From Eledone cirrhosa (Eukaryota), in NCBI GenBank assembly GCA_964016885.1, contig OZ024741.1, positions 30,380,001-30,444,000 on the forward strand: a DNA stretch of 64,000 nt, given 5' to 3'. The notes below the pieces were generated by a model. That model had not been told where the DNA came from, made no database searches, and was given only the letters and a program-made list of their open reading frames with translations. Position numbers and translations under genes: made by a program. Every line of letters starts with the position of its first letter. The first letter of the stretch is position 1. Shown one piece after another: positions 276-54,731 of this stretch.

Positions 276-1385
276 ATATGAAATATAAGAATCAAAGAAC
301 TGTTCAAAACATTATTGTGCTTACAGCTGTTTCCTCCAAACCGAGGTTTGGATTCTTCGGAGCAATTTATTAATGCATGGACAGTTATATGACCTCATTT
401 TCAGCCGAGAGACATACCGATACATATTCAAACATTGATACATATTCAAACATTGTGGGTCAACATTCATTACAGAATTTAGAGTGGCAGTACACACTTC
501 GAGATTACATTTATATTAAGAGGTACAATCAAAGATCAAAAATACAGGTTAAAATACAACATGAAGATAAGTGGTTATATAGTGCAAATGTTATACATGT
601 GGCACGCATGTGCGTCTTGTTTATATAGTGTGGCAGAGAGATATGTGTGGTAGAGGCACTTAGGTAGGTAAACAAGAGTGTTAGGTTGGTAGATCTGGTG
701 GAAAATTCTTTATATGATTGATATAGTCTGTGTGTGGAGAAATGTTATAAGCATTAAAAATAGTGCAAGCATTAAAAGTGTTAAAAGTATTGGAGATGCA
801 CAGCGAAGGGATGTCAAGTATTTCATGTACTTCGGCATTTTCATGGTCAGGGGAGTGTATTTTTCGATTATATGCCCCTCACATAATCCACGACAATCCG
901 ATATTGAGCGTTTGACAATCCAGTTAGAGATCGTAGTCTGGTGTTCTTTAGTTCAATACAGGAGGCTGTTACGTTTCGAGAAACGCCATTGAATACCACC
1001 CGGAAGTGTGTGTGTGACTAAGGGGAGTTAATGCATGCGGGGAGGTAACTCCGGGGTTTCTAAACCTAGCTATTAAAATGTGTCACAATATAAACCCTAA
1101 TTTCTATGGTGATGCGCATCCTCCAAGAAAATTTTTAAAGCATAAAGAGTATTAAGTTATGCTGAAGGTGATCATATTATTATGGTGGATTAACCCATCG
1201 TAAGGTGCCACAAATGGAAATTATAGATGATGAGCGAGGATTCTAAATTAATGATCTCTGTGGTTGTAGTCTACTCATAGGACCAGGCGCGGTGATTGCA
1301 GGATTGCTTCAGGACCCAATGATCTCTGGTAAGTTCTGGGTCATCGCTTGCTGCATTGGATGTCGAAAGATAATCATCCCCAGGC
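276..1385 (-). repeat. 3' pseudo-LTR of PLE
   Basis: Near-identical to 4479-5608, with a few substitutions and one 20-bp indel. Confidence 0.92.
318..364 (-). ncRNA. Minimal hammerhead ribozyme motif in pLTR (C4 core variant)
   Basis: Minus strand reads UGCU-CCGAAGA-A UCCAAACC UC GGUUUGGA G-GAAAC AGCU GUA-AGCA. Stem I is 4 bp, stem II is 8 bp and stem III is palindromic (ACAGCUGU). Confidence 0.75.
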
Positions 1386-1809
1386 CGGCCAGAGGTCAAT
1401 CCACAGTCCTCGCGACCCCTCTCAGACCGTCAGATCATCCATATATGTACAACCCGCACGGCAGTTGCAATGCATTCACTCACTGCGCTCAGCAGCCTGG
1501 TCCTACTGCTCAACAGCGTTACTAGATTAAATCATTTTTCATCTGTCTAAGGAAGGTGTTTCCTCTGCACAACACTATCCAACCGATCAATTCATGCTCA
1601 GATTACCCTTAGAGCGGTGTAGTGCCGTTCAAGTGGGTGGATGCTGTCACACCTGACGTAGAGGTATAAATGGGTATTCTCCCTGCGAAGGGTTCCAGGG
1701 GGATGTCGTTGTTTGTGTTATAATAGATCAGTTAGTGTTAGGTATGTAGTATAAGGTGTGTCTCTGGTGTTTGATGCTAGATGTGGTGTTAGGTTCCAGT
1801 CCGACATTG

Positions 1810-4271
1810 CTATATATTGGGCTTAAAGTTTTGGAAGGAATGTCTGAAGCGGTGCAGGCAAGTTGCAAACACCTCAGATTTTTTGTTAAGTAGGTTTCGG
1901 TTGGAGAAGATAATATTGTGTGTCTCTAGTATACAGAGGTTACAAAATTTATTAGGTGGTTTGTACGAGGTGGCGCTGCCTATCACTTCCCATTTGAGTG
2001 TGTATGGTTTATTTTTAGTTTTTAGATAGTCTATGTAGCTAGAAAGTGAGGTGGAGTTTGCTAGGCTGTGCTTTTTGAACGAGTGGATGTGCGAATTATA
2101 TCTGATTTTGAAGCAGTTAGAAGTGGAGCCTACATAGGTTTCTGAAGAGTTGTTAGTCGTGACGGTGCATGAGTATATGATATCCTTGGTTAGGCATTTT
2201 TTATCTAAAGGGCAGGTTCTATTAGCTCTACAGTTACAATTATCCTGTGCGTTAGTCCGCTGGTTATAATGCAGTGCGGAAGTCTGTGTGGTAGCTATAG
2301 GATTTTGGGCGTTCGGGTTGACAACCCTGGTGTTATTACTTATACTAGTGTTATTTCTATTGTTACTGCCGTTGCTATGGTTGCTTGCTACAGTGGTATT
2401 TAGAGGATTTGTATCCCGTTGTGATTTTGTTTGTTGGAAGTAAGAACTAATTTTACTATTATTGCTGCTAGCTATGTGGTATGCTAAGTTAGGCGTCGTA
2501 GAGTATGAGATTTTAATGGTGTTTTTGTTTAAGAGGTTGTGGTACTTGTGTCCTAGAGGGAAGTTTTTATCTAGTAGTGAGAAGAAAGCCCTAGGTATGT
2601 TGGTGGAGACATTTAGTTTGAAAGGAGGGTTGAAAAATGTATTATTTCTTCTTCTATTTTTGCTTTTAGTGTTTGGTGTGTTGCTTCTTCCTAAGGCCCC
2701 ACAGTAGTTTCCATGGTAATGGTTACTTCCGGTGGCACCCTCCGCTTTGGTGCACTTGTGGTTGCTATTCCTATTATTGGGTTTCCTCATGGACATGTTG
2801 TGCGAGATGATGTTGTAGCTATGTGTTTTCTTAGGTAGGAATTCAATTTCTATATTATGGCCGGAGCTAGCTAATGCTTGATTGTAATATTGTGAGTTTT
2901 TGCTAAATATGTTTGCGTCATAGGACAGACTAGAGATTCTATTGGACACCCCCTTAGAGATAGAGTTTAATATTGATCTAGGGTGATTAGACTTGGTATC
3001 TACGTAAATAAGTTTCTCGTTAGGCTTATGGAAAGGTGTATATATTTTTGAGTCTAGGTATAGTGTGGCGTCTAGGAAGTTAACATTTTTAGTGTTTTTT
3101 GTCCATCGTGATACTAAGGTTAAAGTTTTTGAATGTCTTATGCAATTGTTTTCTAGTTCTTTCTATATTAATTTTTTTATATTCTACAAGTAGAAGTGCA
3201 TTATCGCGGTACAAACCACCGTTGAGGTAAGGGAGGTCCTTATGGATTTCATTGAGAAGGTATAGGCCGACCAAATCAGTGACCTGCGCCGAGTCACTAG
3301 ATCCCATGGTTATGTCGAAGTTGTTGTGCGTATCCTTGCGTGTCCATAGTTGGTCCTCGAAGGTGATTATGGTTTTACGGGCCGCAAGGATGACATCAAC
3401 CTGGGCTCTAGTCAGGTCGCTATTGCTCATGGCCATGATAAGTGCCTTATTTAATAGGATAGGGGAAATAGAGGTGTAGTATGAATTGATATCAAATTGA
3501 ATAACATTTTTGTTCTTATTATTCTTGATATCCTTGAACCATTCAATCACTTCACCCGTATTTCCCCATTGTTTAAGGTGTATCTTGTGTTTAATTTGTG
3601 GGATGATTTTATCCAAAATCTTCTTGCTGATAATACTAATGTCGGACTTGGAAGGGCAGAATAGTCTTATCGTGGGGTTTCTGATGAAGTTCTCCTTATG
3701 GTCCTTCAGTGAGAATCTAGGGGGGGTTCGGGGTGAAAGGTTGTGTATGCCTCTGCAGTCCTAGTTTAGACACTATATTATAACCCTCTACATTAATATC
3801 TTCTAAGTTTTTCAAGGTGGTTTTTTTGTAGCTTTTATGTAGTTCATTATATATAAACTTTCTATAAGTATTATAATCTAGGCTGTATATGTTATTAGTT
3901 TTATCTACGTGTACAATAATTTTATTACTAGTTTTGAATCCATTAATAGAGGTGTTAAGTTTGTTTAAGAAGGTGTTGCTTCTAATATGGTGCTTATTGT
4001 ATTTAATGTTCTTAACTAGTTTAACTAGGTCATTTTCAAAGGAGTTAAGTAGTGTGTTATGAGGGGGGCCTTTAAAGGTTTTAAAGCCGAAGGAGTCAAC
4101 ATTGTTAGTATTATTCAAGTTGTTAGATCTGTTTCTATCATAATGGAATGTCCTCCATCTCACTCTATTGATAAATGAATTTACACTGTTGATCAGCAAT
4201 TTCTCATATGTATTCCTGGATGGTATTGGTATGTTCTTGGTTGACATGGGGAGTTGGTCTTTGATTAGCAT
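1810..4271 (-). pseudogene. PLE reverse transcriptase / GIY-YIG endonuclease ORF, disrupted
   Basis: Three ORF pieces (4271-3717, 3616-3089, 2949-1810) join by frameshifts near 3720 (G run) and 3090. RT motifs: FDINSYYTSI, FDITMGSSDSAQ, GLYRDN (YRDD mutated). EN motifs: IIYSC..YVGST..R...H. Confidence 0.9.
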
Positions 4272-4478
4272 ATTGGCAATATTATATGTCAGCTCAACGA
4301 TATGGAGCAGTTAATAGTATTAGTTATACCATTTATGGTTATGTAAATACAAAACATTATGCAGCTATAAGTATTTTACACACACCCTAAATAGTGGTAG
4401 GCAGTAATGTATTACTACCTTATTACCTGTAAGTTAAGTAGCTCAATGTAAAAACATCAGATGATTTACAGAGCAGTT

Positions 4479-5608
4479 ATATGAAATATAAGAATCAAAG
4501 AACTGTTCAAAACATTATTGTGCTTACAGCTGTTTCCTCCAAACCGAGGTTTGGATTCTTCGGAGCAATTTATTAATGCATGGACAGTTATATGACCTCC
4601 TTTTCAGCCGAGAGACATACCGATACATATTCAAACATTGATACATATTCAAACATTGTGGGTCAACATTCATTACAGAATTTAGAGTGGCAGTACATAC
4701 TTCGAGATTACATTTATATTAAGAGGTACAATCAAAGATCAAAAATACAGGTTAAAATACAACATGAAGATAAGTGGTTATATAGTGCAAATGTTATACG
4801 TGTGGCACGCATGTGCGTCTTGTTTATATAGTGTGGCAGAGAGATATGTGTGGTAGAGGCACTTAGGTAGGTAAACAAGAGTGTTAGGTTGGTAGATCTG
4901 GTGGAAAATTCTTTATATGATTGATATAGTCTGTGTGTGGAAAAATGTTATAAGCATTAAAAATAGTGCAAGCATTAAAAGTGTTAAAAGTATTGGAGAT
5001 GCACAGCGAAGGGATGTCAAGTATTTCATGTACTTCGGCATTTTCATGGTCAGGGGAGTGTATTTTTCGATTATATGCCCCTCACATAATCCACGACAAT
5101 CCGATATTGAGCGTTTGATAATCCAGTTAGAGATCGTAGTCTGGTGTTCTTTAGTTCAATACAGGAGGCTGTTACGTTTCGAGAAACGCCATTGAATACC
5201 ACCCGGAAGTGTGTGTGTGGCTAAGGGGAGTTAATGCATGCGGGGAGGTAACTCCGGGGTTTCTAAACCTAGCTATTAAAATGTGTCACAATATAGACCT
5301 TAATTTCTATGGTGATGCGCATCCTCCAAGAAAATTTTTAAAGCATAAAGTGTATTAACTATAGAGTAGTTTAATTAAGTTATGCTGCAGGTGCTCATAT
5401 TATTATGGTGGATTAACCCATCGTAAGGTGCCACAAATGGAAATTATAGATGATGAGCGAGGATTCTAAATTAATGATCTCTGTGGTTGTAGTCTACTCA
5501 TAGGACCAGGCGCGGTGATTGCAGGATTGCTTCAGGACCCAATGATCTCTGGTAAGTTCTGGGTCATCGCTTGCTACATTGGATGTCGAAAGATAATCAT
5601 CCCCAGGC
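4479..5608 (-). repeat. 5' pseudo-LTR of PLE
   Basis: Near-identical to 276-1385 and ends directly in (TA)n at 5609. Confidence 0.92.
4521..4567 (-). ncRNA. Minimal hammerhead ribozyme motif, second pLTR copy
   Basis: Identical to 318-364. Confidence 0.75.
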
Positions 5609-5609
5609 G

Positions 5610-5685
<76 letters not shown>

Positions 5686-5695
<10 letters not shown>

Positions 5696-6516
5696 ACGTA
5701 CATACATATATGTATACAGACGTACAGTAGTATGTATATATATATACATACATGCACACATATATATATGTACATATGGATTCACCGAAAGTTTATTATA
5801 ATGCTCGATGTGTTTGTAAACAAACATCCCGAATTAAGCTGTGCAGCGTTTAGCAACCATCGTTGCCCTTTTGTTCAACACTGACAAAGGAACGATGTAC
5901 TAGTTTCAAGCTTATTAGCTATCATCAGCAACGTATACCTTCCTGCCAGATAGTTGAACGTCTGAAAGTATATACTTTCCTTATGCATATTAACGGCTGA
6001 GCATAAGGAAAGTATATACCAACCATCTGGCAGGAAGGTATACGTTGCTGACGATAGCTAACAACTTGAAACTAGTACAGTGTTCCTTTGTCAGTGTTGA
6101 ACAAAAGAACAAGGATGGTTGCTAGACACTGTACGGCTTAATTCAGGATGTTTGTTGACAAACACACCGAGCATTATAATAAATGTTCGGTGAATCCATA
6201 CGTACATATATATATATATGTGTGCATGTATGTATATATATATACATACTACTGTACGTCTGTATACATATATGTATGTACGTATACATACTTATATTTA
6301 AGTAACAGCCGTACTAAGAGTGAGAAATTAAATTTCGTTTCATTTTTTCCGTTTATCGTGTTCGGTACCCCGGCCGATTAACTCACTCGATATGCAAATT
6401 AGGCTGCTCAGCCGTTAATATGCATAAGAAAAGTATATACTTTCAGACGTTCAACCATCTGGCAGGAAGGTATACGTAGCTGACGATATCTAATAAGCTT
6501 GAAACTAGTACATTGA
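5686..6516. mobile_element. Family R430: fold-back multimer of a ~430-bp non-coding HHR repeat (retrozyme-like)
   Basis: Inverted arm 5686-6002, then a direct arm with period ~432 (AACCATCTGG at 6021 and 6453). HHR motifs at 5892-5934(-), 6042-6083(+) and 6474-6516(+). Confidence 0.8.
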
Positions 6517-8895: not shown

Positions 8896-9739
8896 ACACC
8901 GCATGCAATTCATGACGTCCAATCTGGCTTGAGCACAGTAGCAGAGAATCGTCTCATTATCAATGCATTTCGGTCACAACATGTATAAACACAGTGCGAG
9001 GGACTGTTTCGCACACTTTCATTTAGGTGCTTACAGCCATCGAGGGCAACCTCGACCAAATATCCATCTGACGCCTTTTAATCGATACATATCTTCTTCT
9101 TAATTTCTGATCTACTGGCTCAATCAGAATTTATTTCACTAAATCGTAATAGAATGCCTTACTGTATTGTTATAAATGTTTAGGTTCTACGTTCAATTTC
9201 CATCAAGGCAAAATTTGTTTTATATAGTTTTGGTGTTGATAAAATAGAATCTGGCCTTGAAGTATTAGTATTGACAGAAAGTTCTCGTAATTGTAAAAAT
9301 ATTTATTGAATTTGGCGTTTTTTAACGTTAAGGAAATTTTACCAATCAAAATAATCGCCATCATTTGCGACTACAGTCTGCCAACCTTTAGGAAGGCACA
9401 TGATTCCATCTCTGTAGAATTATTCTGGCTTCCATTCAAAGAATTCCGTCATCCACTGATTTAATTGATCTTTATAATGTAGGCGGCAGGTCGGATGCCA
9501 ACTCTTATATATGTTCACATGCACAACCTTAAACATTTCTAGAAAGCTCTACCAAAATACTTCCTTTTCAAAAACAGCGGGAACTTCTCTCAGTCCAGTT
9601 ACTGTCACTATTGCAATCGTATTGTTTCAATATTATTACTCTCCGCTGTGTACCAAATTGCATCCTAAAAAAGAATGCTTCATTTATCACTTTTTTGTTC
9701 TTTTCCCCTGAGCTAGATATTTTAACATTATAAGCTGTA

Positions 9740-9935
9740 AAGGGCGGTGGATTGGCAGTATCGGTAGAGGGTCGGACGCCATGATTTGACGCATAGAGTT
9801 ACGGCGATTTCCATTCTGAGTTCAAATCCCGCCGAGGTTAACTTTGCCTTTCATCCTTACGGAGTCGATAAAATAAAATACCAGTAATGCACTGGGTATT
9901 TGCTGGCGTTGTGCCAAAAGTAGAAACAATTATTA
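9740..9935 (+). mobile_element. tRNA-derived SINE, family A
   Basis: A box TGGCAGTATCGG, B box GAGTTCAAATCC, body TTTGCCTTTCATCC..GTCGATAAAATAAA. At least 5 good copies occur in the window. Confidence 0.85.
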
Positions 9936-19652: not shown

Positions 19653-19794
19653 TGCGCAGTGTAAACTGTTGTTATATTACACTTACCTCCAATTTTACTC
19701 TATTTTGTATAGCATACACCTGACAACGACGACATGCAACGAACAACACCGCCATTGCTAGCTCACCAATTATTTAATGACACACAGCAACAAT

Positions 19795-19976
19795 AATAAT
19801 TGTTTCTACTTTTAGCACCCGGCCAGCTATTATCCAATGTATTGCTGGTACTTTATTTTATCGACCCCGTAAGGATGAAAGGTAAAGTTAACTTCGGCGG
19901 GATATGAACTGAGAATGGCAAGGGCCGTAACTCTATGCAACAAAGCATGGCGTCCGACCATCTACCGTTACTACCA
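19795..19976 (-). mobile_element. tRNA-derived SINE, family A
   Basis: Reverse complement of the 9740-9935 family. Confidence 0.85.
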
Positions 19977-20540: not shown

Positions 20541-20712
20541 CTCACCCTCTTTTGATTACTTAATTTTGTATTTATCATTTTAAAAAAATATTTCCATCAT
20601 CGTACAACTTCATTTTGTTAAATGAAATTGACATAATATGTTTATGTATAACAGATAACAAAATTATATTTGGCAGCTTTTATGGATTAAGTATGAAAAT
20701 CTCAATATTTAT

Positions 20713-20770
<58 letters not shown>

Positions 20771-21017
20771 CTATATACATACACACATATATATATATGT
20801 ATATATATATTTGTATGTATATATGTATATATATATGTATATATATATATATATATATATTGGAATAAATGCTCTGAAATAGCGATATATATGTGAATAT
20901 AGACATAGAATATTCGAAAATATTCTGTATGTTTATAATAAACATTTTGAAGACCTAATCGCTATAGAATAGAATACGTCACGTATTACAATTAGATTCT
21001 CGATAAAAGCAAGGGAA

Positions 21018-21060
21018 GTAATCTACGCGTTTCATTCTTGTTAGAAATCATCAGGACTAC
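21018..21060 (-). ncRNA. Type I hammerhead ribozyme in R310 (inverted arm)
   Basis: Exact reverse complement of 21605-21647. Confidence 0.88.
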
Positions 21061-21327
21061 ATATCCAGTGCTTTTATCGAGAATGACACAGCTAGAGACT
21101 TATAGAATACTTAGCTGTGTACAGGAACTGATTTGAAAGAGCGGTTGCCGGTCCGGCAGAAATTAGAAATTGGAATAAATGCTCTGAAATAGCGATATAT
21201 ATGTGAATATAGACATAGAATATTCGAAAATATTCTGTATGTTTATAATAAACATTTTGAAGACCTAATCGCTATAAAATAGAATACGTCACGTATTACA
21301 ATTAGATTCTCGATAAAAGCAAGGGAA

Positions 21328-21370
21328 GTAATCTACGCGTTTCATTCTTGTTAGAAATCATCAGGACTAC
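21328..21370 (-). ncRNA. Type I hammerhead ribozyme in R310 (inverted arm)
   Basis: Exact reverse complement of 21605-21647. Confidence 0.88.
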
Positions 21371-21604
21371 ATATCCAGTGCTTTTATCGAGAATGACACA
21401 GCTAGAGACTTATAGAATACTTAGCTTTACAGGAACTAATTTGAAAGAGCGGTTGCCGGTCCGGCAGAAATTAGAAATTGGAATAAATGCTCTGAAATAG
21501 CGATTCTGCCGGACCGGCAACCGCTCTTTCAAATCAGTTCCTGTACACAGCTAAGTATTCTATAAGTCTCTAGCTGTGTCATTCTCGATAAAAGCACTGG
21601 ATAT

Positions 21605-21647
21605 GTAGTCCTGATGATTTCTAACAAGAATGAAACGCGTAGATTAC
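21605..21647 (+). ncRNA. Type I hammerhead ribozyme in R310
   Basis: GUAGUC-CUGAUGA-U UUCU AACA AGAA U-GAAAC GC GUA-GAUUAC. The core is intact and stem III is palindromic. Stem I is extended by the 16-bp helix 21581-21596/21654-21669. Confidence 0.88.
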
Positions 21648-21914
21648 TTCCCTTGCTTTTATCGAGAATCTAATTGTAATACGTGACGTATTCTATTCTA
21701 TAGCGATTAGGTCTTCAAAATGTTTATTATAAACATACAGAATATTTTCGAATATTCTATGTCTATATTCACATATATATCGCTATTTCAGAGCATTTAT
21801 TCCAATTTCTAATTTCTGCCGGACCGGCAACCGCTCTTTCAAATCAGTTCCTGTACACAGCTAAGTATTCTATAAGTCTCTAGCTGTGTCATTCTCGATA
21901 AAAGCACTGGATAT

Positions 21915-21957
21915 GTAGTCCTGATGATTTCTAACAAGAATGAAACGCGTAGATTAC
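21915..21957 (+). ncRNA. Type I hammerhead ribozyme in R310
   Basis: Identical to 21605-21647. Confidence 0.88.
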
Positions 21958-22224
21958 TTCCCTTGCTTTTATCGAGAATCTAATTGTAATACGTGACGTA
22001 TTCTATTCTATAGCGATTAGGTCTTCAAAATGTTTATTATAAACATACAGAATATTTTCGAATATTCTATGTCTATATTCACATATATATCGCTATTTCA
22101 GAGCATTTATTCCAATTTCTAATTTCTGCCGGACCGGCAACCGCTCTTTCAAATCAGTTCCTGTACACAGCTAAGTATTCTATAAGTCTCTAGCTGTGTC
22201 ATTCTCGATAAAAGCACTGGATAT

Positions 22225-22267
22225 GTAGTCCTGATGATTTCTAACAAGAATGAAACGCGTAGATTAC
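22225..22267 (+). ncRNA. Type I hammerhead ribozyme in R310
   Basis: Identical to 21605-21647. Confidence 0.88.
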
Positions 22268-22699
22268 TTCCCTTGCTTTTATCGAGAATCTAATTGTAAT
22301 ACGTGACGTATTCTATTCTATAGCGATTAGGTCTTCAAAATGTTTATTATAAACATACAGAATATTTTCGAATATTCTATGTCTATATTCACATATATAT
22401 ATATATATTTATAATATATTTATATATACATATATATATAAAGCCAAACAAGTGAAGAAGTAAAACAAAACAAAATAAAGAGGAACATATTAAATACCAA
22501 AATGGATATTATAAAACTAACCAAATGGAAAATAAAACATTTGACCTGGAAAAATTCCAGTCATTCAACTGTACAACTAGATGTAACCATGGATATAGTC
22601 TACGTATGTTGTGGCTGATAAAGCCGGTTAATGGGATGAAATGTAACTCTCTGCTATGAATGTTGGGAATAAATCATTATAGACTTTTCAAGAACATCT

Positions 22700-25901: not shown

Positions 25902-27912
25902 TTTATTAAAATAACAGATTAAAGTTTAAGCAAAGAATAGCTGATTTCACCCTTGACGGGATCTTCTGAAACTTAAAAGTCAATCTGTGAACGCAGAAGT
26001 GAATATTTCAAAAAAACGTTGCAACCGAAGGAAGACGATACTTTGGTTCGTGGAAACGTTCCCTGACAAAGAACCGAAAAAAACGAAGATAATACGTCAT
26101 TATGTTGAACGGTGAGAACAATTACGCGCAAAGACAAAACCACGTAAATGGTATAACTGAAGTCGTAGACTAAAATTCTATCTAGGAAATCGAATGATTC
26201 TCGGCTTCAAAGTAAGAATAAAGTAATTAAATACAGAGGTAATCGAAATTAAATATATACATACACGCATCCATAAACGTACATACACAAGCATATGCGA
26301 AAACACTCGCCATGGGTATACAAATACAAGCACGTACACAAAAAGAAAAGAAGAGAAAAACACAAACCTGCACGCCCATACAGAACCCACACAACGCCTG
26401 TACCTGCACACATACGAACGTATACACCAAATACACATAAACTATATATAAAATAAATATATATATATGTGTGTGTGCGCGCGTGTATACATATAATTAA
26501 AAGAACGTATATAAATAAATAAATAAATACGTATATAACGCGCGCACACACATACCTGCATGTAAAACACGTATGTTCGCAGACGTACGTCAACCAAATC
26601 ACAAAGTACACAAATACACACACCCTACATACGTATGAACCCGCATACTCACACAGACGCAAAACTCACGTATATACATAACCAAATGCACATGTACCAG
26701 AATATATAATATATTATATACACCATAACATATACAAGCAAATATACGTACGAGAACGTATACGTACTTTCACGAAACATACAGGTAAAATATACTTACC
26801 TATACAGATAAGTAATGGTATAAACATAACATATACTTAGGTACCACATCAAGACGTAAATATCCGCGTATAGTTCGTGCTATCCGTTATGGTATAATGT
26901 GGGGCTGTAATACAGGAAAATGTTGTGCAATTTATGTTTACAAGCCGAAATTGCCTCAGATTTTTTGTTTAAGATGTGGTCTTTGGCGCAGAGTATTTCC
27001 AGGGCCTCAGCGGCGCAGAGGTCACATGGTCTTTTATTTCCGTTATACGATCTAGCCCTAGCTATGATCTTCCAGTGTAACTTATATTGGGTGTGGTTGT
27101 CTTTTAGACTCCAGATATAAGCTGACAGTGACGTCATATTCATTCTTAAAGGGTTAAGAAAAGAATGGGTATGCATGTAAAGCCGCTGCTTGAAACTATT
27201 GGCGGTTAACCCTATGTAGGCCCTACGGGACGTGGGTGTTTCAACCTTACATTTATAGACAATGTTACTAGAGAGGCATTTCCCGGATAGGGGGCAGTCA
27301 ACCCGGTTCCTACAATTACAGTTAGTATTAGCTACAGGGTTGCACGTGTTCCTACGGCTAGGTATTTTAGCTAAGTTTGAAGCTGTGATGTTATGTGCAA
27401 GGTTAGGAGTCGTACAGTAAGAAATTTTAATGGTATTTCTATTAAAATTTTACTATATTTATGTGATGGGGGGAAATGCTTCGTAATAAGGGAGAGAAAG
27501 ATCTTAGCTAATGGTGTGGCCACCTCCATATTATATGGTGGGTTATACCATATAATGCGTCGGGATCTATTTTTCCTAGGTCTATTCTCGTACTCTGTAT
27601 ATGCTATCTTATTGACGAATCCACTCCGAGCAAGAGCTTCATTGTAATATGTGAAATGGTCGTTGAAAATATGCTCGTTTGTAGATAGACGTGAAAGTCT
27701 CAAAGAAACGTTTCTTACTAGGTTCTTGGTTATGCTGGCAGGATGGTTGGAATGCTTACTTAGGTGATTAAGCGTATCATTCGGCCTTCTATACGGGTAT
27801 TGTAAGCCATTCGACAAATTGAGGGTAACGTCGAGGTAAGTAACGACCGAAAGGTTAGCCTCAACCTGTATGGAGAGGTTGAAGCCTTTAAAGAAGGCTG
27901 TGAGTTCTTTTC
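25902..27912 (-). mobile_element. 5'-truncated PLE (RT C-terminus, linker, GIY-YIG, 3' UTR/pLTR)
   Basis: YLDVTLNL..YRRPND..SNHP, WYNPPY, CNCRNRVDCPLSGKC, YIGLT, KSEAISACKH. Frameshifted. Confidence 0.88.
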
Positions 27913-28024
27913 TATATATATATAAAAGGAAAGATCGACTTTCGTCAAATCGGGCCGAGGAAACAATGTTTCCATTGGTCTTTCCAATTGCTAATACTAT
28001 CTATCCGTCGCAATTCCAGGTAGA

Positions 28025-28141
28025 AGGAGCAACGTGAAATAAAGTGTCTTACTCAAGGACATAACGCATCGCCCGGTCCGGGAATCGAACTCACAACCAT
28101 ACGATTGGGAATCCAATTCTTTAACCACTCAGCCACACGCC
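28025..28141 (-). mobile_element. tRNA-derived SINE, family B (head)
   Basis: Minus strand has A box TGGCTGAGTGG and B box GAGTTCGATTCC, then TCCTTGAGTAAGACACTTTATTTCAC. Confidence 0.8.
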
Positions 28142-28169
28142 TACATACATATATATATATATAAGTGTG

Positions 28170-28455
28170 GGGGGAGGGGTAGGTGGCCTAGTGGTAAGGG
28201 TTTGGGACTTATGATCATAATGTCGTAGGTTCGAGTCCTGGATTGCGTGTGGTGTTCTTGAGCAAAACACTTCATTTCACGTTGCTCCAGTATACTCAGC
28301 TGAAATGAGTACCAACAATAGATGCGGGTTTAACCCTGCGATGGACTGGCGTCCTGTTCAGGGAGAGTCTTGTATTTTCTGTCGATTCACGCCATGAAAC
28401 CGGATCACGATAAGCACAGGCTAAATAAGCCTTCTGGCTTAAGACAGACTTTAGA
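28170..28455 (+). mobile_element. tRNA-derived SINE, family B
   Basis: A box TGGCCTAGTGG, B box GGTTCGAGTCC, body TCTTGAGCAAAACACTTCATTTCAC...CCTGCGATGGACTGGCGTCC. Confidence 0.85.
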
Positions 28456-28467
28456 CATCTATATATA

Positions 28468-28825
28468 TTTATTAAAATAACAGATTAAAGTTTAAACAAA
28501 GAATCGCTGCTTTCAGCCTTAACGGGATCTTCTAAAACTAACAAAGTCAATCTGTAAACGCAGAAGTGGATATTTTAAAAAACGTTGCAACCGGAGGAAG
28601 ACAGGAAGACGATACTTTGGTTCGTGGAAACGTTCCCTGGCAAAAAACGGGAAAAAACGAATATAATACGTCATTAATAGGAGCGGTGAAAAACAATTAC
28701 GCAGAAAGACAGAACCACGTTTATGGTATAAAAGAGGTCGTAGACTAATGTTCTCTTAGGTGGTGCATAGAGACGTTCTCTGGCAATGAACGAAAAAAAC
28801 GAAGATAATACGTCATATGTGAAGC

Positions 28826-29857: not shown

Positions 29858-30032
29858 GGTGGATTGGCAGTATCGGTAGAGCTTTGCAGCATAGAATTAT
29901 GGCCCTTTATGTTCTGAGTTCTAATCCCGCCGAGGCTAACTTTGCCATTCATCCTTACGGGGTTGATAAAATGAAGCACCAGTAATACATTGGGATAATT
30001 GCTGGCCTTGTTTCAAAAGTAGAATCTATTAT
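29858..30032 (+). mobile_element. tRNA-derived SINE, family A
   Basis: Matches 9740-9935. Confidence 0.8.
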
Positions 30033-32141: not shown

Positions 32142-32187
<46 letters not shown>

Positions 32188-33539
32188 AATGTAGATTTCT
32201 GATGATTTCTAATGAATGAAACAGTTCTAGTCCTGTAGAATCTCATCTATATTAAAACTGTTATACTCTGCTATGTATTGAGTACCTTACTTACTGTGGT
32301 TACCTCCGATTCAACCCGGAATAACGTATATATATATATATATATATAAATGAAAAGTATAGAAAGTATTGTAGCAAGAAGCCAACGGTATTCCATAATA
32401 TATAAGTGACTATAGCGTCAAAATGGGAAAATAGTTAACGTAAGATGTGGGAAATATAATTCAAACTCAATTCAAAAAGAATCAGGATATAGATTTATCC
32501 AACAGAATTTAGTGAAAACCAGGGAAAAATCAATAGACCCTTAACTCATGATAAAATAAAGTCTAAAATACTCATCCTTCAATTCGGAACAACTACGAAT
32601 GCTCTGTATAGTCTTGAAAAGACTATTTCACGAAAACTTTCAGTGGGTATGGTCACGGTTGGAATTCGATCCTCAGCAGAGCACAACATGATAACCCAAA
32701 TCTCACTGATTAATATGCCAAAAAGGGAATTTAAAAGCAGGCTAGTTTAACATCATGCATGATTATGAAAATAAAACGCAGATGTGGAAAAACAGGGCTG
32801 GTGGCGTCAAAATGAGACGAATGTTTGTTTCCATGAATCAACAGTAAAAAACATTCCGAAAAGAAATCTACATGGGGCTTAGGGTATGTAACAATATACG
32901 TAGATGTGAAAAGGAAAAATGTCGCAAGCAAATTTGTCAGACGATCTGAGAATCCTAGCATTTCGAAATGTTATGTAAGTATAATCTTCTTGTATTAATT
33001 GTAAATGTAATTCGTCCTTTCGATCGATCTAATTGTAATGATTACTGTTTGATCCAGCCAATGATCAAAAGGGTCGCGTTTCGGCCGCACAGTCATTTTT
33101 CATGCATCATGTGTCTAATGCCCGTGTATGCATATTAAGATGAGATTAAAAGGAAATTTACCTGGGGTATATAGTAGGTCAAATGACAATGTAAAAGGTC
33201 CCTTCTTAGATCAGAGAATGACAATCAACGGTGAGATAATTGATGTAATCACAGGCACTTCAAATGTTTACATGGAGTACACGGAAAGCACCCATAATTT
33301 CCTGCCTCCAGTAATTTACAACTCAGTGTGAACATATATTAAATATTAGCATATATATATATATGTGCAGTTTTAAGCTTTGATCATCAATGATAAACAC
33401 TGATTGCCAAATAAATTAACTATGGAGTTATAAAAGATACAAAAGCGAAAGCCAACCAAACAGTGAGTGCGTTCTGTTATTATTTCTGGCAATATTATTA
33501 CAACAATAGGACCCTCGCAAAGTATATATATATATATAT

Positions 33540-34150
33540 ATAAATGTAAGTATGTATACGTACATACATATATGTATACATACGTCCAGTAGTATGTATA
33601 TATATATATATACATCCATGCACGCATTTTTTTATATATATATGTACGTATGGGTTTACCGAACATTTATTATAATGTTGTAAACAAACAGCCCGAATTA
33701 AGCCGTACAGTGTTCGGCAACCATCGTTGCCCTTGTGTTCAACACTGACAAAGGAACGATGAACTAGTTTCAAGCTTATTAGCTATCGTCAGCATCGTAT
33801 ACCTTCCTGTCAGATGATTGAACGTTTGAAAGTATATATCTGACAGGAAGATATACGATGCTGACGATAGCTAATATGCTTGAAACTAGTTCATCGTTCC
33901 TTTGAACAAAAGGGCGACGGTGGTTGCCGAACATTGTACGGCTTAATTCGGGCTGTTTGTTTACAAACAAACCAAACATTATAATAAATGTTCGGTAAAC
34001 TCATACGTACATATATATATGTGTGCATGTATGTATATATACATATGTACATACTACTGTACGTCTGTATACATATATGTATGTACGTATACATACTTAC
34101 ATTTAAGTATCAGCCGTACTAAGAGTGAGAAATGAAATTTTATTTCATTC
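33540..34150. mobile_element. R430 fold-back
   Basis: Palindromic about ~33835. HHRs at 33756-33798(-) and 33855-33897(+) have a perfect stem I (ACGAUG/CAUCGU) and a GUU site. Confidence 0.8.
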
Positions 34151-34153
34151 TTT

Positions 34154-34231
<78 letters not shown>

Positions 34232-34236
<5 letters not shown>

Positions 34237-35440
34237 CTCAACCCACCCATAACAACATCCAAAACCGCAACGGAGGACCTGCACACAGAAAAGCCACCAA
34301 CTGTAATTTCCACTCACCGGATAAGGGCCCACAGCAATATAGATGCCTGGATTCGAGTATGGTGTACCTGTGTACTGTAAATTCAGGCAACTCTACTTGG
34401 CACTACATAGGTTCCACGGCTGGGGAGTTCAAGAAAAGGTGGTACGTCCACAGACACTCCATGAAGTACCGTAGACTGGAGAACTCTACGACGCTCGCTA
34501 ATAAAATTGGCAGCTTAAAAACACAAACCAGTAATATTGGATTAGCTGGTCGAAATTATCGGTAGCAAGGGCTTACAGCAACGGAATGTCCCACTGCAGA
34601 TTTGTAAAATATAGAACTATTCCATATTTTAAGGTACGATAAGATGCTGCTTAACAGGAAAAATGGAAAGATCAATTTTCTGTAGGCATAAAATAGCTAC
34701 TAGGTTCACAAATTTCAAAACATTGTGATTCGAGCCAGCAATCCCAAAATTAGAACTGAACCACCTGGATTTTAACGTATGGCATACACACCATCACACC
34801 ACTATCTATATATTTTTACTCACCTCAATCCGGATTCTCACTTGAACATGTTTTTTATTTCTAATGGTTAATGTTTTAATTGTTTAATTTATAATTTCTG
34901 ATATTTGATTTAGGATTTTAATTTTTATTTCCAACTCTCACTCATAACTTCCAATGTAAAAGCATGATACCTATAATTAAGTTTATTTTCTCTTAGGAGT
35001 TGATGGTCAGTTGTACTGTCCACGCTTGGTGAGAGGTAGTATTGTGACCTGTAAAAACTAACACTCTCCCATCCCCTCTGGCTTTCGGCTGACTGCCACA
35101 GTCGGGATGGGTAGCAGTAAACTATGGCACAGGCCTAAGTGGGTCATTGTTTGGCTGAGCGGGTGAACTGACTAAGCGAATTTCGTTGAAATCTGCGGTA
35201 GCTAATGGTCAACTTCCTTCGGACATGCGCCTGCGCAGACCGGTGGGGGTGAATTGGTACTCACAGGAGAACGGATGAAAAACCCCAAAGCACAAACTTC
35301 GTCCGTTCCCATGTCGATTCAATTTGGATTGCCTCGGAAACATAACCTTATTATGTAACAAGCTGTCTGATGATGTCACGACACTCGCACACAGAACAGT
35401 GTGGCCAGTGTCGTCATTGAAATATATATCACAGCATTAT
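34232..35440 (+). mobile_element. PLE 3' fragment (GIY-YIG plus 3' UTR with HHR)
   Basis: MVYLCTV...WHYIGSTAGEFKKRWYVH, starting directly after (TA)n. Confidence 0.82.
35362..35435 (+). ncRNA. HHR motif with long stem II
   Basis: GCUGU-CUGAUGA-[ACGACACU..CACAC..GUGUG..AGUGUCGU]-GAAAUAUAUAUC-ACAGC. Confidence 0.78.
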
Positions 35441-35445
35441 TATTA

Positions 35446-35642
35446 AAGGGCGGTGGATTGGCAGTATTGGGAGAGGGTCGGACGCCATGCTTTGACGTAT
35501 AGAGTTACGGCCCTTGCCATTCTGAGTTCAAATCCCGCCGAGGTTAACTTTGCCTTTCATCCTTACGAGGTCGATAAAATAAAGTACCAGTAATGCACTG
35601 GGTAATTGCTGGCCTTGTGCCAAACGTAGAAACAATTATTAT
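35446..35642 (+). mobile_element. tRNA-derived SINE, family A
   Basis: Clear A and B boxes and a full body. Confidence 0.88.
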
Positions 35643-35757
35643 TAAAGGACTTGAACAACTGAAGCTAATTCGCTTTTCCTTATTCGATATTTACTCCGTC
35701 ACTCCTATGTGGAAAAATAACGTTGAGTGCTTGAATTGAATTGCATCAATGTTAACC

Positions 35758-35984: not shown

Positions 35985-37735
35985 GAATATAAAATGAAAG
36001 TGCTTTTATAAAGGAATTTATTAGGTATTGACATATGTTTCTGTAACAGACGTAATACCTATGTATCGCTGCTTGCGTAATCATATAATGTTAGCAAGTA
36101 TTCGATAGCAAATATATAATCAGTTGTCACTACTTCAGAGATATTGGATAAATTGGAAAAAATCAGAAAACTTGAAGTATTCATATTAGTTGTAAGAAAG
36201 GAAGAAGAGAGGGGATAGTATATGACAGATGGAAATTCAATTTACTGGTAAACAAGTTTATAGAAGGTTTCTAATGAGAATAAGAGTATATGGCTTATTT
36301 ATAGTATATGAGTATATGGCTTTATTTATAATGAGTATATGGCTTATTTTATCTAAATAAGAAGTTTTGCGAGTGCCTATTTTAATCTATACTTGACCAA
36401 TTGAACAATGGACAGGGCTGGTCGTTTGGTGTAGTAGTATTAATAGATATAAAGTGTCAATTAAGGAAGAAGGAGATTTTGACTACTACTGTATAACAGC
36501 AATGCTGGTAGCCTGCTGGTATATGAATTAGGGAATTGAATTAATAAATCCCATTTTATCTATAGCAGTTTAATGGTAAAGAATAGAAGAGTTGATAGAA
36601 TTAAAATTAATAGAGAATGTTAATATGTATTTTGACAATCAAACGGAGATGGAGACAGGCGTTCAATTCTGGTAGCGTTTGTAATATGAAAATGTAGATT
36701 TCAAGCGATGGTTACAGTATAACGATCGCTCTATTCTGTTATTTAATAACATCTTTTGGGATTTCATAATACAAAATATTTCCATATTACAAAATTTACA
36801 AAATTCCTGTCCTTGGGTTATGCAGGGGCAGTACTATTATATCCCATTTTAGGTTAAATTGTTGGTTATTTTCGCGCAGCTGCCAAGCCTTGTCTGCGAG
36901 TGTTGTTACATAACGCTGGTTTTCATGTTTTATCGAGTAACGATGTCTATAAAGGCGAGATTTGAAGGAGGTAGCTGTAGACCCCACATAGTACCACTTC
37001 TGGCTACCCGATTCGATAGTACATTTGTATATGATGTTGCGTTCAAGACACTGATTGTTCAACGGACACATTCCTGGTTGGACACAGTTACAGTTATAAT
37101 TTTGCGTTGTTGTATTGGCATAGATGGGTTGATGAGGTTGCTTAGGCAGGACGGGATGTTGTTTCTTGTTTTGTGATGTTATAGCCGATGTTTTACGTGT
37201 ATTGTTATGTGTTGGAAGGCGTTTATACAACCGTTTTGCTTTAAGCTTTTTTATATGTTGTTCAATATTAGGGGCGGTTGAATATGAACGTCGAATAGTG
37301 TTAGGGCTTAAGATTTTATTATATTTATGTGATCTTGGAAAGTGTTTTTAACTAATCGAATTAATTGTGAGGGTAGATTGATTTTAATAGAGTTGTTATA
37401 GACCGGGTTGTACCATATATACTCTTTACATCGCCTTCTGTTTGGTGGTGTGCGATTATTAGTGTGTCTATTGCGGTAGTGTATGTATGGTGGTCATTCT
37501 ATGCTATTTCTACCTCTATGAGATTTATTTTGGGTGTTCATTTTTTCTGATTTTTTTCCAATTTATCCAATATCTCTGAAGAAGTGAAAACTGATGATAA
37601 TTTGCTATCGAATACTTGCTAACATTTTATGATTACGCAAGCAGCGAGACATAGGTATTCCGTCTGTTACAGAAACATATGTCAATACCTAATAAATTCC
37701 TTTATAAAAGCACTTTCATTTTATATTCATCTTTT
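35978..37735 (-). mobile_element. PLE 3' fragment with an inverted pLTR copy at its 5' end
   Basis: CNCVQPGMCPLNNQC, IIYKC and YYVGST at 36796-37230. 35978-36170 is mirrored at 37543-37735. Confidence 0.85.
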
Positions 37736-39429: not shown

Positions 39430-41420
39430 TGTGTCTAATGCACCAGGATGTTTTTGATACTTTCATACTCCGTTATTTTGCTACGGTGTTGTTGTTGGAA
39501 TCGGTTGTGTCTGGGTTTGAATTTTATACCCTTGACCAGTTGGAAGAGGTCTTTCTCGAAGGGTGAGAGCAGAGGGTTCGATGGGGGCGGATTTGTAGGT
39601 ATTGAATCCGTATCTCTCCTTGGTGTCGAATCCTGGTTGTCGCGGTATCTATTGGAGAAGAATGTTCTCCATCGCAATCCTTTCGCAAACAGGTCGATTT
39701 TTTGCGTGAGCATCCGAAGGTAAAGTTTTCTTTGGGGAACTGGGATGTCTTTGTGGAGAAGTCGAAAGTGCGTTTTCGCATAGTAGGTATTATGAAGAAA
39801 CTGGAGCTTGCTGGAAAAATCGGGATATGGCGTGGTAGGGTCGGAAAGTGCTCTACTACAGAGGTAGGAGCTAGATAACGAAGGAAGTGGGGTATGGAAC
39901 CATGTGGACCATAGTACTCAATACTTAGGGTAGTTGAGTTGGGTAATAGGAAATTGTTCAAGATCCCGATGGCAGAACTCAAGCCGACGGCTATTTCTGG
40001 ACTAAATTAGATTTTTAGCGTGGTAATAAATAACCGAACTTTTGAAGGGGTAATTCCATATATGGGAAGATTGTTGTTGTCAAAAGGATTGGTCAACATT
40101 TATTGTAATCACAATCAAATCTTTCATGGTGGTGGGTGGCTGAACTTGCCTGTATAACAATGAGGGAGTGGGTGGAGCCGGTCATACGTTGAAAGTGAAT
40201 TCTATACAGCAAATTGTAAGGAGTGTGAATGAAATTATGCTAGCTAGAAAGCAGGCAAAAAAAGAATTCTGCAGGAATCCGGGAGTGGGAAGTTATAGAA
40301 TTAAGAAATTAAAAAGTTAATAAATTGAAATTAAAAAATTAAAAAACAATAAATAAAAATAATATTATAATATCAAATAATAAAAAATAATAAAAAAATC
40401 TAGAGTCTAAAACAGCTGCTATATTGTTAGCCTTTATTGCGTTTTCGGCCAATGCTATACTGAATATTTTTCGTGGCAGTACTGAGGCTACAAAAGCCCG
40501 ATGGGCTGCCTCAGGGTAAGCGAAAGAGGAAACAGGAAGAAGAGAGGGAATGGAAGAAAGTGAGAAGAAGAGATAATGGGAAAAAAAAGTACATCTGCCT
40601 ATGTATGCTGGGGTTTCTCCTATCTTCAAGCGGGGAAAAGAAGGATCTTACAGCCATTGTCTACCCACCCGCGTCATGAGGGTGTTTGAAGGCGAGGTAA
40701 GTCCTATGCAATCGGTATTTACATGCGGTTACAAGTTCGTCTTTTTTGTGTAGGAGTTGGTCCTTTGTAAACAGCATTTGTATTGTTTTCTCCGAGCATA
40801 AGTTACACGGACGGCGTCCTCCTGTGCAGGGGTTAGACCAGGAAAGTAAGCTCCAAGTAAGATGTTATGTGATGTTATTTTCTTGGAGTTCCCAGATGTG
40901 GCCCGAAAAGGTAGAGGCATGTCGCCGGGCCGGGTTTCTGAACGTATGTCGGTGTTGGTAGATCCGGGTATTAAGGTCACAAGCAGTTAATCCTATATAT
41001 GTTGGAGTTTTACGTTCTCGGCCTCTGTTGTTGAAGGGGCACACAGATCTATCAGGGCAGTTACACCTCCTGGTCGGCTCTCCACTAATGTCTAGGTTGT
41101 TTTTTTCCATAGGAGTTGAGTTTGTTGTTGTTTGGGAGGCGATGTTTTGTGCGAAATTAGGTGTGGTGCTGTAGGAGAGTTTGGTAGTGTTTTTGTTGAT
41201 TATGTTGTGGTAGCGTTGTTGTGGTGGGAAGTGTTTTTCGAGGAGCCCCAAGAAGATTTTCCCGATTGGTGTTGCAACCTCGGCATTCTGGGGAGGGTTG
41301 AACCACGTTACGTGGCGTGAGCAGCGGCGTCGCCTTCTGGTTCCGTTAGAGGAAGCTGGGTAAAAGGATATTTCCTCCCGAAAGCCGCTTCGCTTGAGGG
41401 CCGGGTTGTAATAAGGTCCA
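39430..41420 (-). mobile_element. Partial tandem PLE: EN/3' part (41420-40000) then the start of an ORF (39780-39435)
   Basis: WFNPP..IGKIFL, CNCPDRSVCP and YIGLT, then DFSTK..LRWRTFF..FEKDL, homologous to 3717-4271. Confidence 0.8.
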
Positions 41421-41494
41421 GAAATATATATAATAATAGTAATAATAATAACATATGTAGTAATAAACACAGTAAATCGTCTTAATAACTCTGC

Positions 41495-41566
<72 letters not shown>

Positions 41567-42125
41567 CTCATATTTGTTGCGATGTTCATGGCAAGGAGAG
41601 AGGGTAGTGATATCAACATTACATTTGCAGATTTTAACGTCTAATTGTTTGAAATATAAACACACCATTGTCTGAGCAGGAAACTAGTTGACTAACTCTA
41701 TGATCAGGTTTATCTGGGCATGTATTAAAATAGCTCTGATATTTATGTTTCAGCTGCCGTATCGTTTCAATTAATTGTATACCGAGATATCTCATTGTTA
41801 CGGCATCAAGTTGTCTTCCGTTGTACTCCAGATATTATGCTCTAAACGTAAAATAATATTGTTGTAGGATTTTGTAACGTTTTCAATTAAGTTTACAAAA
41901 AAAAAAAAAAAAAAAACAGAACGTGTTATGCAAATATTAGCTCCTACGATAAAAATGTACATGTATGTAATATGCTATATGGGCTTCCATTTGTCTGTAT
42001 AAGCATGGAGGAGTTATTGAATTTAGATACATATGGGTATATGTGAATGTCTTTCGACGGATACATTTTTGTGTACAGGATTTTCATTTTGTAATGCTTA
42101 GTGTATGTTTACCGTAGTGTATATG

Positions 42126-43093: not shown

Positions 43094-43100
<7 letters not shown>
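42381..43100 (+). repeat. Partial tandem repeat (period ~546) with a CTGAYGA motif
   Basis: 42381-42560 is repeated at 42927-43100 and ends in (TA)n. Confidence 0.7.
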
Positions 43101-43143
<43 letters not shown>

Positions 43144-43149
43144 CGTGTG

Positions 43150-43862
43150 TGTAAGTATGTATACGTACATACATATATGTATACAGACGCACAGTAGTAT
43201 GCACATACACACATACATGCACACATATATACATGTACGTATGGATTTACCGAGCATTTATTATAATGCTCGGTTTGTTTGTAAACAAACATCCCGAATT
43301 AAGCCGTACAGTGTTTAGCAACTATCGTTGCCCTCTTGTTCAACACCGATAAAGGAACGATGTACTAGTTTCAAGCTTATTAGCTATCCTCAGTACCACA
43401 TACCTTCCTGCCAGATGATTGAACGTCTGAAAGTATATACTTTCCTTATGCACATTAACGGCTGAGCAGCCTAATTTGCATATCGAGTGAGTTAATCGGC
43501 CGGGTGCACCGAAAACGATAAATGGAAAAAAATGAAATCATCTGGCAGGAAGTTATACAGTGCTGACGATAGCTAATAAGCTTGAAACTAGTACATCGTT
43601 CCTTTGTCGGTGTTAAACAAGAGAGCAACCATGGTTGCTAAACACTGTACGGCTTAATTCGGAATGTTTATTTACAAACAAACCGAGTATTATAATAAAT
43701 GCTCGGTAAATCCATACGTACATATATATATGTGTGCATGTATGGATGTGCATACTACTGTGCGTCTGTATACCTATATGTATGTACGTATACATACTTA
43801 TATTTAAGTAACATCCGTACTAGGAGTGAGAAATGAAATTTTGTTACATTTTTTCCATTTAT
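43150..43862. mobile_element. R430 fold-back
   Basis: Inversion near 43538. HHR motifs at 43357-43399(-) and 43557-43599(+). Confidence 0.8.
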
Positions 43863-43875
43863 ATATATATATATA

Positions 43876-45879: not shown

Positions 45880-46062
45880 TATTGGCAGTATCTGTAGAGG
45901 GTCGGATGCCATGCTTTGATGCATAGAGTTACGGCCCTTGCCATTCTGAGTTCAAATCCCGCCGAGATTAACTTTGCCTTTCATCCTTACGGGGTCGATA
46001 AAATAAAGTACCAGTAATTCACTGGGTAATTACTGGCCGTGTGCCAAAAGTAGAAACAATTA
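45880..46062 (+). mobile_element. tRNA-derived SINE, family A
   Basis: Matches 35446-35642. Confidence 0.85.
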
Positions 46063-46182
46063 TAATTATACACGGACCTACTTATATACTTCGTTGAGTG
46101 CTCTATCTTGCATATACTAGTATCGGGATTTTAACTAACGTATAATATAGCATATATATATATATAAAAGTTAATATATATT

Positions 46183-52382: not shown

Positions 52383-52496
52383 TATATTATTATATAATGG
52401 TCAGTATTTATACTTTGAGCTTGTTAATTACAGGGTATCAATATGAGTTAGTAACTCCGTATTTTATTTGCATATGTTTTCTAATATATATATATA

Positions 52497-52536
52497 TATA
52501 AGTATGTATACGTACATACATATATGTATACATACG

Positions 52537-52572
<36 letters not shown>

Positions 52573-53214: not shown

Positions 53215-53256
<42 letters not shown>

Positions 53257-54676: not shown

Positions 54677-54728
<52 letters not shown>

Positions 54729-54731
<3 letters not shown>

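Follow-up and report, generated by a model that had tools for sequence, protein, structure and literature searches.

The window analysed here is a stretch of 64,000 nucleotides from Eledone cirrhosa (contig OZ024741.1), in which two (AT)n tracts enclose an inverted array of a 310-bp unit that we call R310 (Table 1). Unit positions are counted from the base after the predicted cut, so that window position 21642 is position 1.

Table 1. Coordinates of the R310 array, its ribozymes and its flanks in the window
Feature	Position	Strand	Remarks
Left (AT)n target tract	20705..20860	.	TRF
Left arm	20859..21504	-	2.1 units; 3' outer end at unit 165 ("long" end), joined to (AT)n
PLE-type "tail", 26 bp (unit 140-165)	20859..20884	-	Long end only; tail concept from PMC8557442 and PMC11167929
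Hammerhead 5	21018..21060	-	Predicted cut after 21024
Complete left-arm monomer	21024..21333	-	1 substitution
Hammerhead 4	21328..21370	-	Predicted cut after 21334
Head-to-head junction of two 5'-truncated arms	21504	.	Unit 138 meets unit 173; 1-base overlap
Right arm	21504..22400	+	2.9 units; 3' end at unit 139 ("short" end), own AT run merging with target (AT)n
16-bp helix (21581-21596 with 21654-21669) around ribozyme	21581..21669	+	Sister family: 8 of 16 pairs altered on both sides
Hammerhead 1 (type I)	21605..21647	+	Predicted cut after 21641
Reference monomer, cut to cut	21642..21951	+	310 nt, 34% GC; predicted circular RNA
8-bp hairpin, UUCG loop	21739..21758	+	Sister family: 2 compensatory pairs, GCAA loop
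Locus-private variant, unit 203 T (family: C)	21844	+	In every covering unit, both arms
Hammerhead 2	21915..21957	+	Predicted cut after 21951
Second complete monomer	21952..22261	+	Same as reference monomer
Hammerhead 3	22225..22267	+	Predicted cut after 22261
Right (AT)n target tract	22393..22440	.	TRF

The array and its ribozyme

A preliminary description of the locus had proposed a head-to-head array of five 310-bp hammerhead units. This is borne out by two 310-bp TRF arrays that meet at 21504 (left, 2.1 copies at 98%; right, 2.9 copies at 100%) and by five identical, intact hammerhead cores, three on the plus strand (+21611, +21921 and +22231) and two on the minus strand (-21364 and -21054). 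Only three monomers are complete from cut to cut. The arms consist throughout of the same low-GC unit, within the 150- to 450-bp range of noncoding tandem units, with no LTR, PBS, or PPT body, and the longest ATG-started frame in the array is 30 amino acids.

Each unit contains a type I hammerhead made up of a 6-bp stem I, CUGAUGA, a 4-bp stem II under a U.U mismatch, GAAAC, a 2-bp palindromic stem III, and GUA. The ribozyme had been labeled "minimal," a term that does not fit: the minimal form described in PMC4209133 has no helix III, a helix II of 7 to 8 bp, and a helix I of 4 to 5 bp, and R310 departs from it in all three, its helix lengths being those which the same paper defines as the canonical metazoan type I form. 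It is for this canonical form that PMC4209133 describes a dimer mode via a palindromic stem III. A scan with the Rfam models returned nothing at gathering score in the window, only a subthreshold match to Hammerhead_HH9 (19.2 bits, E 0.041, versus a gathering score of 52).

The two sides of the 16-bp helix proposed in the preliminary description are exact reverse complements, and the arms of all the listed hairpins are present; the fifth helix (unit 60-66 with 138-144) nevertheless has a probability of ca. 0.3 and is not conserved in the sister alignment described below, where 31% of it is paired. Folded as a circle, the monomer has a predicted minimum free energy of -69.1 kcal/mol (z -4.4 versus 100 dinucleotide shuffles), and the complementary strand is predicted to fold equally strongly (z -5.0). 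In the monomer ensemble, the pair probabilities of stem I and the long helix are mostly near 1, those of stem II are 0.13 to 0.16, and that of stem III is 0. Two copies are predicted to pair through an intermolecular stem III at -17.7 kcal/mol, versus -5.8 kcal/mol per monomer.

A sister family, found through a diverged match (L193-L222 and L041-L043; for example, G000:C1:304807680-304808280), has a 319-nt unit that is collinear with R310, copies that are ca. 95% alike, the same two ends, a U3:A8 core, and a 4-bp stem III. One of its loci, L041, is a further diverged variant with a decayed core. When 4 R310 and 9 sister copies were aligned, both partners were seen to have changed in 8 of 16 long-helix pairs, in three of the four pairs of stem I and likewise of stem II, and in two of the eight pairs of the UUCG hairpin, and C3-G8 was seen to be replaced by U3-A8, a covariation also reported in PMC4209133. 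The 17 compensatory pairs compare with 0 to 2 in slid controls, the alignment consisting of two lineages, so that each pair change counts as one event. Among the R310 copies themselves, pairing survives 7 of 9 inherited substitutions that fall at structured sites, against 9 of 70 unit-private changes (P = 1e-4, leaving aside two inherited single-base insertions in stem I); in the replication set alone (defined below), the same test gave a P value of 0.43. Our prediction that no pairs would be broken failed, in that two inherited changes break near-terminal pairs, and avoidance of the catalytic core by inherited variants was not significant (0 of 46 versus 9 of 222; P = 0.37). We conclude from the sister-family covariation that selection maintains the fold.

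Insertion plan of the family and its Penelope-like footprint

Exact cores number 4,584 in the organism's genome (G000, 3.0 Gb), and a reversed control pattern has no match there. Ends joined to TA fall into two kinds genome-wide, 1,286 "long" (unit ca. 165) and 1,249 "short" (unit ca. 139). On C1:1-217.8 Mb, 94 long and 100 short ends gave 62 divergent pairs within 20 kb, every one of them consisting of one long and one short end and none of two of a kind, and left 70 ends without an exact partner; scaled up from this interval, the number of loci is estimated at ca. 1,700. We mapped 139 loci (the window, 10 chosen by ribozyme, and the others chosen by exact end), after setting aside L132, which seems to duplicate L064 next to an assembly gap. 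Among these, 116 are two-armed and head-to-head, 111 have both ends visible as long plus short, and none of the 139 is long-long or short-short; the remaining loci are single-armed, rearranged, or extend past the fetched stretch. The plan is also followed by 8 of the 10 loci that were chosen by ribozyme and not by their ends. Head-to-head arrangement is the rule in this family, and the form first described in the window, real as it is there, is the standard insertion product rather than a peculiarity of one locus.

Long ends in the discovery set (defined below) lie mostly at unit positions 165 (55 ends), 170 (16), and 172 (4), with others at 166 and 168. At the short end, the TA run of the target often takes the place of unit C131 (42 of 82 ends stop before C131 and 26 after it), suggesting that priming occurs by pairing with the AU run of the unit. 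Arms range from 0.2 to 30 units, the dispersed copies extending from dimers to large multimers; in the discovery set, arm lengths are compatible with an exponential distribution, and the two arms of a locus are weakly correlated (rho 0.24). Central junctions (n = 116 loci) comprise 73 overlaps, 12 blunt joints, and 31 inserts, and the span between the outer ends consists of units in the mapped loci, save for a few short inserts of at most 272 bp. The R310 family is young, dispersed, and noncoding.

The 5' ends in 148 arms of the discovery set are scattered, with no pileup at the cut site. Two earlier ideas were abandoned on this ground. One was a Pol II initiator inside the unit (203-208), to which clustered 5' ends had pointed; its motif exists only through the private variant of the window. 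Runoff of reverse transcriptase at the ribozyme cut site would place ends at positions 1 to 3, where 7 of 148 lie, mostly as an effect of the filtering out of pieces shorter than 20 bases, and no enrichment was seen. Spread to organisms B to D (runs X2, X5, and X6) was likewise set aside: each yielded one 340-base contig at a depth of 10 to 15, against a summed depth of ca. 2-6 x 10^5 in X1, which we read as trace carryover, and tandem DNA, no less than a circle, can give a 340-base contig cycle.

In its ends and its inversion, the R310 insertion shows the tail-plus-inversion footprint of Penelope-like elements (PLEs). Craig et al. (2021; PMC8557442) describe PLE insertions as partial tandems with an inverted 5'-truncated copy, a 30- to 40-bp tail that is often one-sided, and a bias toward (TA)n, and call the mechanism of the tandem and inverted insertions undefined. 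Frangieh et al. (2024; PMC11167929) report that a PLE enzyme, predicted to be dimeric, cuts and extends both strands in vitro, and that reverse transcription starts at two internal RNA sites, which bound the tail and are the same for either strand; the PLE ribozyme was dispensable for insertion in vitro. R310 shares with endonuclease-bearing (EN+) PLEs the partial tandems, the inverted 5'-truncated copy, the tail at a single end, the (TA)n targets, and the two adjacent internal start sites, the inversion with its one-sided tail in a microsatellite being found in all 62 pairs and at the 111 loci with both ends visible. It differs from them in having no ORF and in that the whole element is a 310-nt unit, present in up to 30 copies per arm. 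Its tail measures 26 to 33 bp, against the 30 to 40 bp given in PMC8557442, and one of its start sites has clear homology to the target, whereas initiation by the anole PLE enzyme is reported in PMC11167929 to be nonhomologous.

Autonomous PLEs co-occur with R310 in this genome and produce insertions of the same kind. A degraded copy of one family, PLE-A, occupies window 276-5608 on the minus strand, with 1.1-kb pseudo-LTRs (pLTRs) that contain a hammerhead-like motif with a variant core; many intact 819-amino-acid copies lie elsewhere. In three of four fetched PLE-A loci (the fourth was cut off), a short and a long end lie in TA, the arrangement is head-to-head, and the tail is ca. 165 bp. 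Pfam returned nothing on the intact protein, and its assignment as a PLE rests on motifs (YRDD, a CxC/CPL linker, and a GIY-YIG-like endonuclease) together with a weak GIY-YIG match on a related window fragment; one named match among the 120 listed is an octopod protein (39%). A second, very young autonomous family, PLE-F (L263-L270; for example, G000:C1:183739210-183752947), is younger than PLE-A, with 150 of 150 of the matches listed at 100% identity, and forms full-unit tandems of 6.7 to 7 kb; it includes more than 4 kb of microsatellite-rich noncoding sequence, in which the hammerhead pattern was unmatched. Fragments of further PLE families lie at window 25902-28754, 34107-34565, 36796-37347, and 39435-41683.

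Similarity between R310 and PLE-A did not rise above shuffles (96 and 80 of 200 shuffles scored as high). Dedicated searches of PLE-B, PLE-F, and the L043-type family at their downstream ends found none, nor was any seen downstream of single fragments of about six more of the at least 11 PLE families that the genome holds. Since R310 has no sequence in common with the PLE families examined, it is by the footprint alone that we infer a PLE helper.

Several other repeats were observed in passing. A second, older hammerhead family (window 5610-6513, 33523-34153, 43098-43875, and 52484-53245), with a unit of ca. 420 to 430 bp and a palindromic stem III, likewise inserts head-to-head into (TA)n and has 9,489 exact cores genome-wide. 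A third, short hammerhead family (window 32186-32328; L162-L180) has a stem II similar to that of R310; we considered it as a partner of R310 on this account and rejected it, no ORF being present in the 1.5 kb upstream of the two long copies that were translated. Most of its copies begin ca. 5 nt ahead of the core and often bear stuttered snippets of 5' sequence together with a short inverted arm, which suggests a true RNA 5' end and template jumping. Non-LTR retrotransposon fragments lie at window 48764-50847, 54633-56813, 57189-60601, and 62820-64000, with an RVT_1 match on 54633-56717 and an inverted pair at 92% identity. Five copies of a SINE-like repeat of ca. 190 bp (window 9738-9935, 19792-19976, 29858-30032, 35444-35644, and 45881-46068) presumably resemble octopus SINEs.

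The template of each insertion

If one monomer is copied repeatedly, a change in it will be fixed in all units of both arms, whereas a genomic multimer as template will leave unit-specific changes mirrored at the same index in the two arms. We compared these outcomes in a discovery set (75 two-armed loci among ca. 86) and, with four predictions fixed beforehand, in a replication set consisting of the next 53 loci (43 two-armed), in which again no long-long or short-short locus was found. Unit-private changes amount to 0.055% per base in the discovery set (128 in 230,962 bp), so that ca. 17% of genomic units carry one. A fixed variant was defined as one present in all covering units (at least 3) of both arms and in no other locus of the set.

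Fixed locus-wide variants were found at 14 of 75 two-armed loci in the discovery set, including the 203T of the window, versus 11.1 expected, and at 7 of 43 in the replication set, versus 6.9 expected. Mirrored unit-specific variants were limited in the discovery set to two points and one block (L069, L151, and L080), versus 37 expected for a genomic multimer, and were absent from the replication set, versus 20.5 expected, where a flag at L302 proved to be a locus-wide variant missing in one unit. Over both sets, 21 loci with a once-seen fixed variant thus stand against 18 expected under a one-monomer template, and two points and one block against 58 expected under a multimer, both expectations assuming donors with the present-day mutation load and being lower if donors were very young. 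Four variants classed as private in the discovery set (259G, 292T, 210A, and 35T) were seen again in the replication set, so that "private" holds relative to the sample. With 85 loci yielding 35 locus haplotypes, two templates drawn independently would in most cases be unlike; since the two arms of a locus match, a single molecule or its clones served for both. Unit junctions at the cut site are precise, barring inherited variants and a few single-unit changes. Taken together, the variants indicate a monomer bottleneck, that is, a single monomer template per insertion. We consider it probable that the arrays arise by direct rolling-circle copying of one RNA circle, predicted to be covalently closed.

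Some loci depart from this pattern. L080 has two haplotypes in the same order in both arms and, like L069 and L151, needs a multimeric template, while L134 switches haplotype inside one arm and needs either a multimer or a template switch. L036, L316, and L323 reflect later DNA-level turnover. The mosaic loci as a group (L080, L134, L316, and L323, with two haplotypes or shared unit variants) may reflect multimer templates, template switches, or later turnover of DNA.

The mirrored patterns in L080, L069, and L151 are what would be expected if the template were an uncleaved linear multimeric transcript of very young, homogeneous donor arrays, which would leave the same PLE footprint and make the hammerhead a passenger. 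Such a template would also agree with the report that unprocessed RNA is the main PLE substrate in vitro (PMC11167929) and with a monomer fold that disfavors the active core. Nonetheless, a linear multimer alone cannot spread a single-unit mutation to every unit of both arms, as seen at the 21 loci and in the agreement of haplotypes, and mirrored variants number 2 to 3 instead of 58; nor would a passenger ribozyme be expected to have its fold kept by covariation in the sister family. We regard this explanation as improbable.

No more probable, in our judgment, are two explanations that accept the monomer bottleneck and fit the variant pattern as well as a circle does: a nicked monomer that stem I and the 16-bp helix keep closed and whose nick the reverse transcriptase jumps, or a viroid-like, RNA-replicated multimer of one circle. 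The predicted helices would indeed keep the two ends of a nicked monomer together. Variants that recur on several backgrounds resemble RNA-level change, and heterogeneous mussel circles are noted in PMC7229834. Against them stand the precision of the unit junctions at the cut site and the lack of any sign of antisense RNA or of a ribozyme on the unit's antisense strand.

The unit may well descend from a PLE pLTR, and a detached pLTR that was inserted short and then expanded by unequal crossing over, the route suggested in bioRxiv 10.64898/2026.07.22.740005, would fit a few long arrays (L036, L037, L059, L316, and L323) with shared unit variants suggestive of DNA-level turnover. As a general account it is very unlikely. 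Variants shared between neighboring units are rare (9 at 5 loci out of 86 and 8 at 3 loci out of 53, against 128 and 94 unit-private ones), each of the two inverted arms is a multimer that stops at a fixed site of reverse-transcription type, and in none of the 139 mapped loci is an R310 end joined to a PLE ORF body or an RT-GIY-YIG ORF present between the repeats, so that the unit did not prove to be simply the pLTR of an autonomous PLE, an outcome that the preliminary description had allowed for. That the inversion is a long-read or assembly artifact is scarcely credible, for although no contig among those listed (short-read runs X1, X3, and X4) spans the window junction at 21504, the arms are unequal in length, every one of the 62 pairs has two different fixed end sites, public contigs also contain both of the TA-joined end types, and other families of the genome have the same form.

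Mobilization, editing, and relation to known retrozymes

Returning to the circular template, we propose the following sequence of events. Tandem transcripts would self-cleave at GUA, probably as dimers via the palindromic stem III, and a host ligase would close the products into 310-nt circles. A PLE reverse transcriptase/GIY-YIG endonuclease, whose footprint is observed, would open (TA)n; both target ends would then prime, one site per arm, at unit ca. 139 (aided by the unit's AU run) and at ca. 165 to 172. Both cDNAs would run repeatedly round the same monomer, as the sharing of variants suggests, which would produce arms 0.2 to 30 units long whose 5' ends are scattered, and the two cDNA ends would presumably join, mostly via a short overlap, into the head-to-head junctions that are observed. 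In L1 twin priming, too, both target ends prime reverse transcription, and the 5' inversion is joined through a short overlap. Unlike in L1, however, inversion is usual in R310, both primers use fixed sites ca. 26 nt apart, and the template is likely circular.

That R310 is a PLE-mobilized retrozyme, with cleavage, circles, and helper predicted from its sequence and footprint, is to us highly probable. The preliminary description had reached the same reading, including a PLE helper, and both parts are supported by the dispersed tandem copies genome-wide, the PLE-type ends, the monomer bottleneck, and the conserved fold.

Animal non-LTR retrozymes were defined by Cervera and de la Pena (2020; PMC7229834), who demonstrated cleavage and circles in coral, mussel, and axolotl, both of which are predicted from sequence for R310, and who proposed rolling-circle copying by PLEs, a proposal with which a review (PMC7761336) agrees. 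Like R310, these retrozymes are described as noncoding tandem units of 150 to 450 bp that have a GC content below 45%, contain a single type I hammerhead each, pair strongly with themselves, number thousands of copies, and occur alongside PLEs. The axolotl Amex2 ribozyme shares with R310 both a 2-bp helix III and, at the base of helix II, a U.U. Li, Clavereau, and Pollet (2026; bioRxiv 10.64898/2026.07.22.740005) tie vertebrate retrozymes to PLE pLTRs, suggest local expansion by unequal crossover, and report in vitro cleavage of 1 of 9 Xenopus retrozyme dimers. In their available text, both PMC7229834 and this preprint propose PLE mobilization without insertion ends, inversions, or a template test, all three of which were measured here for R310. 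A search of the open literature, mostly of abstracts, turned up neither a retrozyme from a cephalopod, nor an explanation of PLE inversions by twin priming, nor any editing of retrozymes; further molluscan families may be given in the supplement of PMC7229834. By its sequence, R310 is a new animal non-LTR retrozyme family; as the class is already known, its value lies in mechanism rather than in a further catalogue entry.

One further lead concerns RNA editing. Cephalopods edit their RNA heavily, and ADAR prefers UAG. Among inherited R310 variants, sense-strand A>G changes make up 13 of 42, against 11 of 164. The excess was noticed post hoc in the discovery set (9 of 29 versus 5 of 94) and was seen again in the replication set (4 of 13 versus 6 of 70; P = 0.046), where A>G and T>C stood at 4 to 3. 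At helix positions 20, 259, 260, and 276, A>G recurs on different backgrounds. A-to-I editing of a template would leave A>G fixed locus-wide only if one molecule were copied repeatedly; selection for G.U pairs would also explain the excess. One speculative possibility, which we hold to be rather unlikely but worth stating, is that every insertion preserves a single circular RNA on which the two active sites of a dimeric Penelope-type enzyme worked simultaneously, and that some of these circles were A-to-I edited. If this were true, RNA editing would be written into the germ line via the retrozyme circle, and the genome would serve as an in vivo readout of retrozyme and PLE transposition.

Two questions are open in print: how animal retrozymes move, for which a PLE helper and rolling-circle reverse transcription have been proposed and the 2026 preprint favors later DNA-level expansion, and how PLEs form tandem and inverted insertions with a one-sided tail. 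Both can be tested from sequence in R310, thanks to its youth and its copy number. Its strict pairing of long and short ends assigns the two known start sites of reverse transcription one to each arm, and the unit itself offers a 310-nt substrate for in vitro PLE assays as well as a lead on editing that may have shaped the family.
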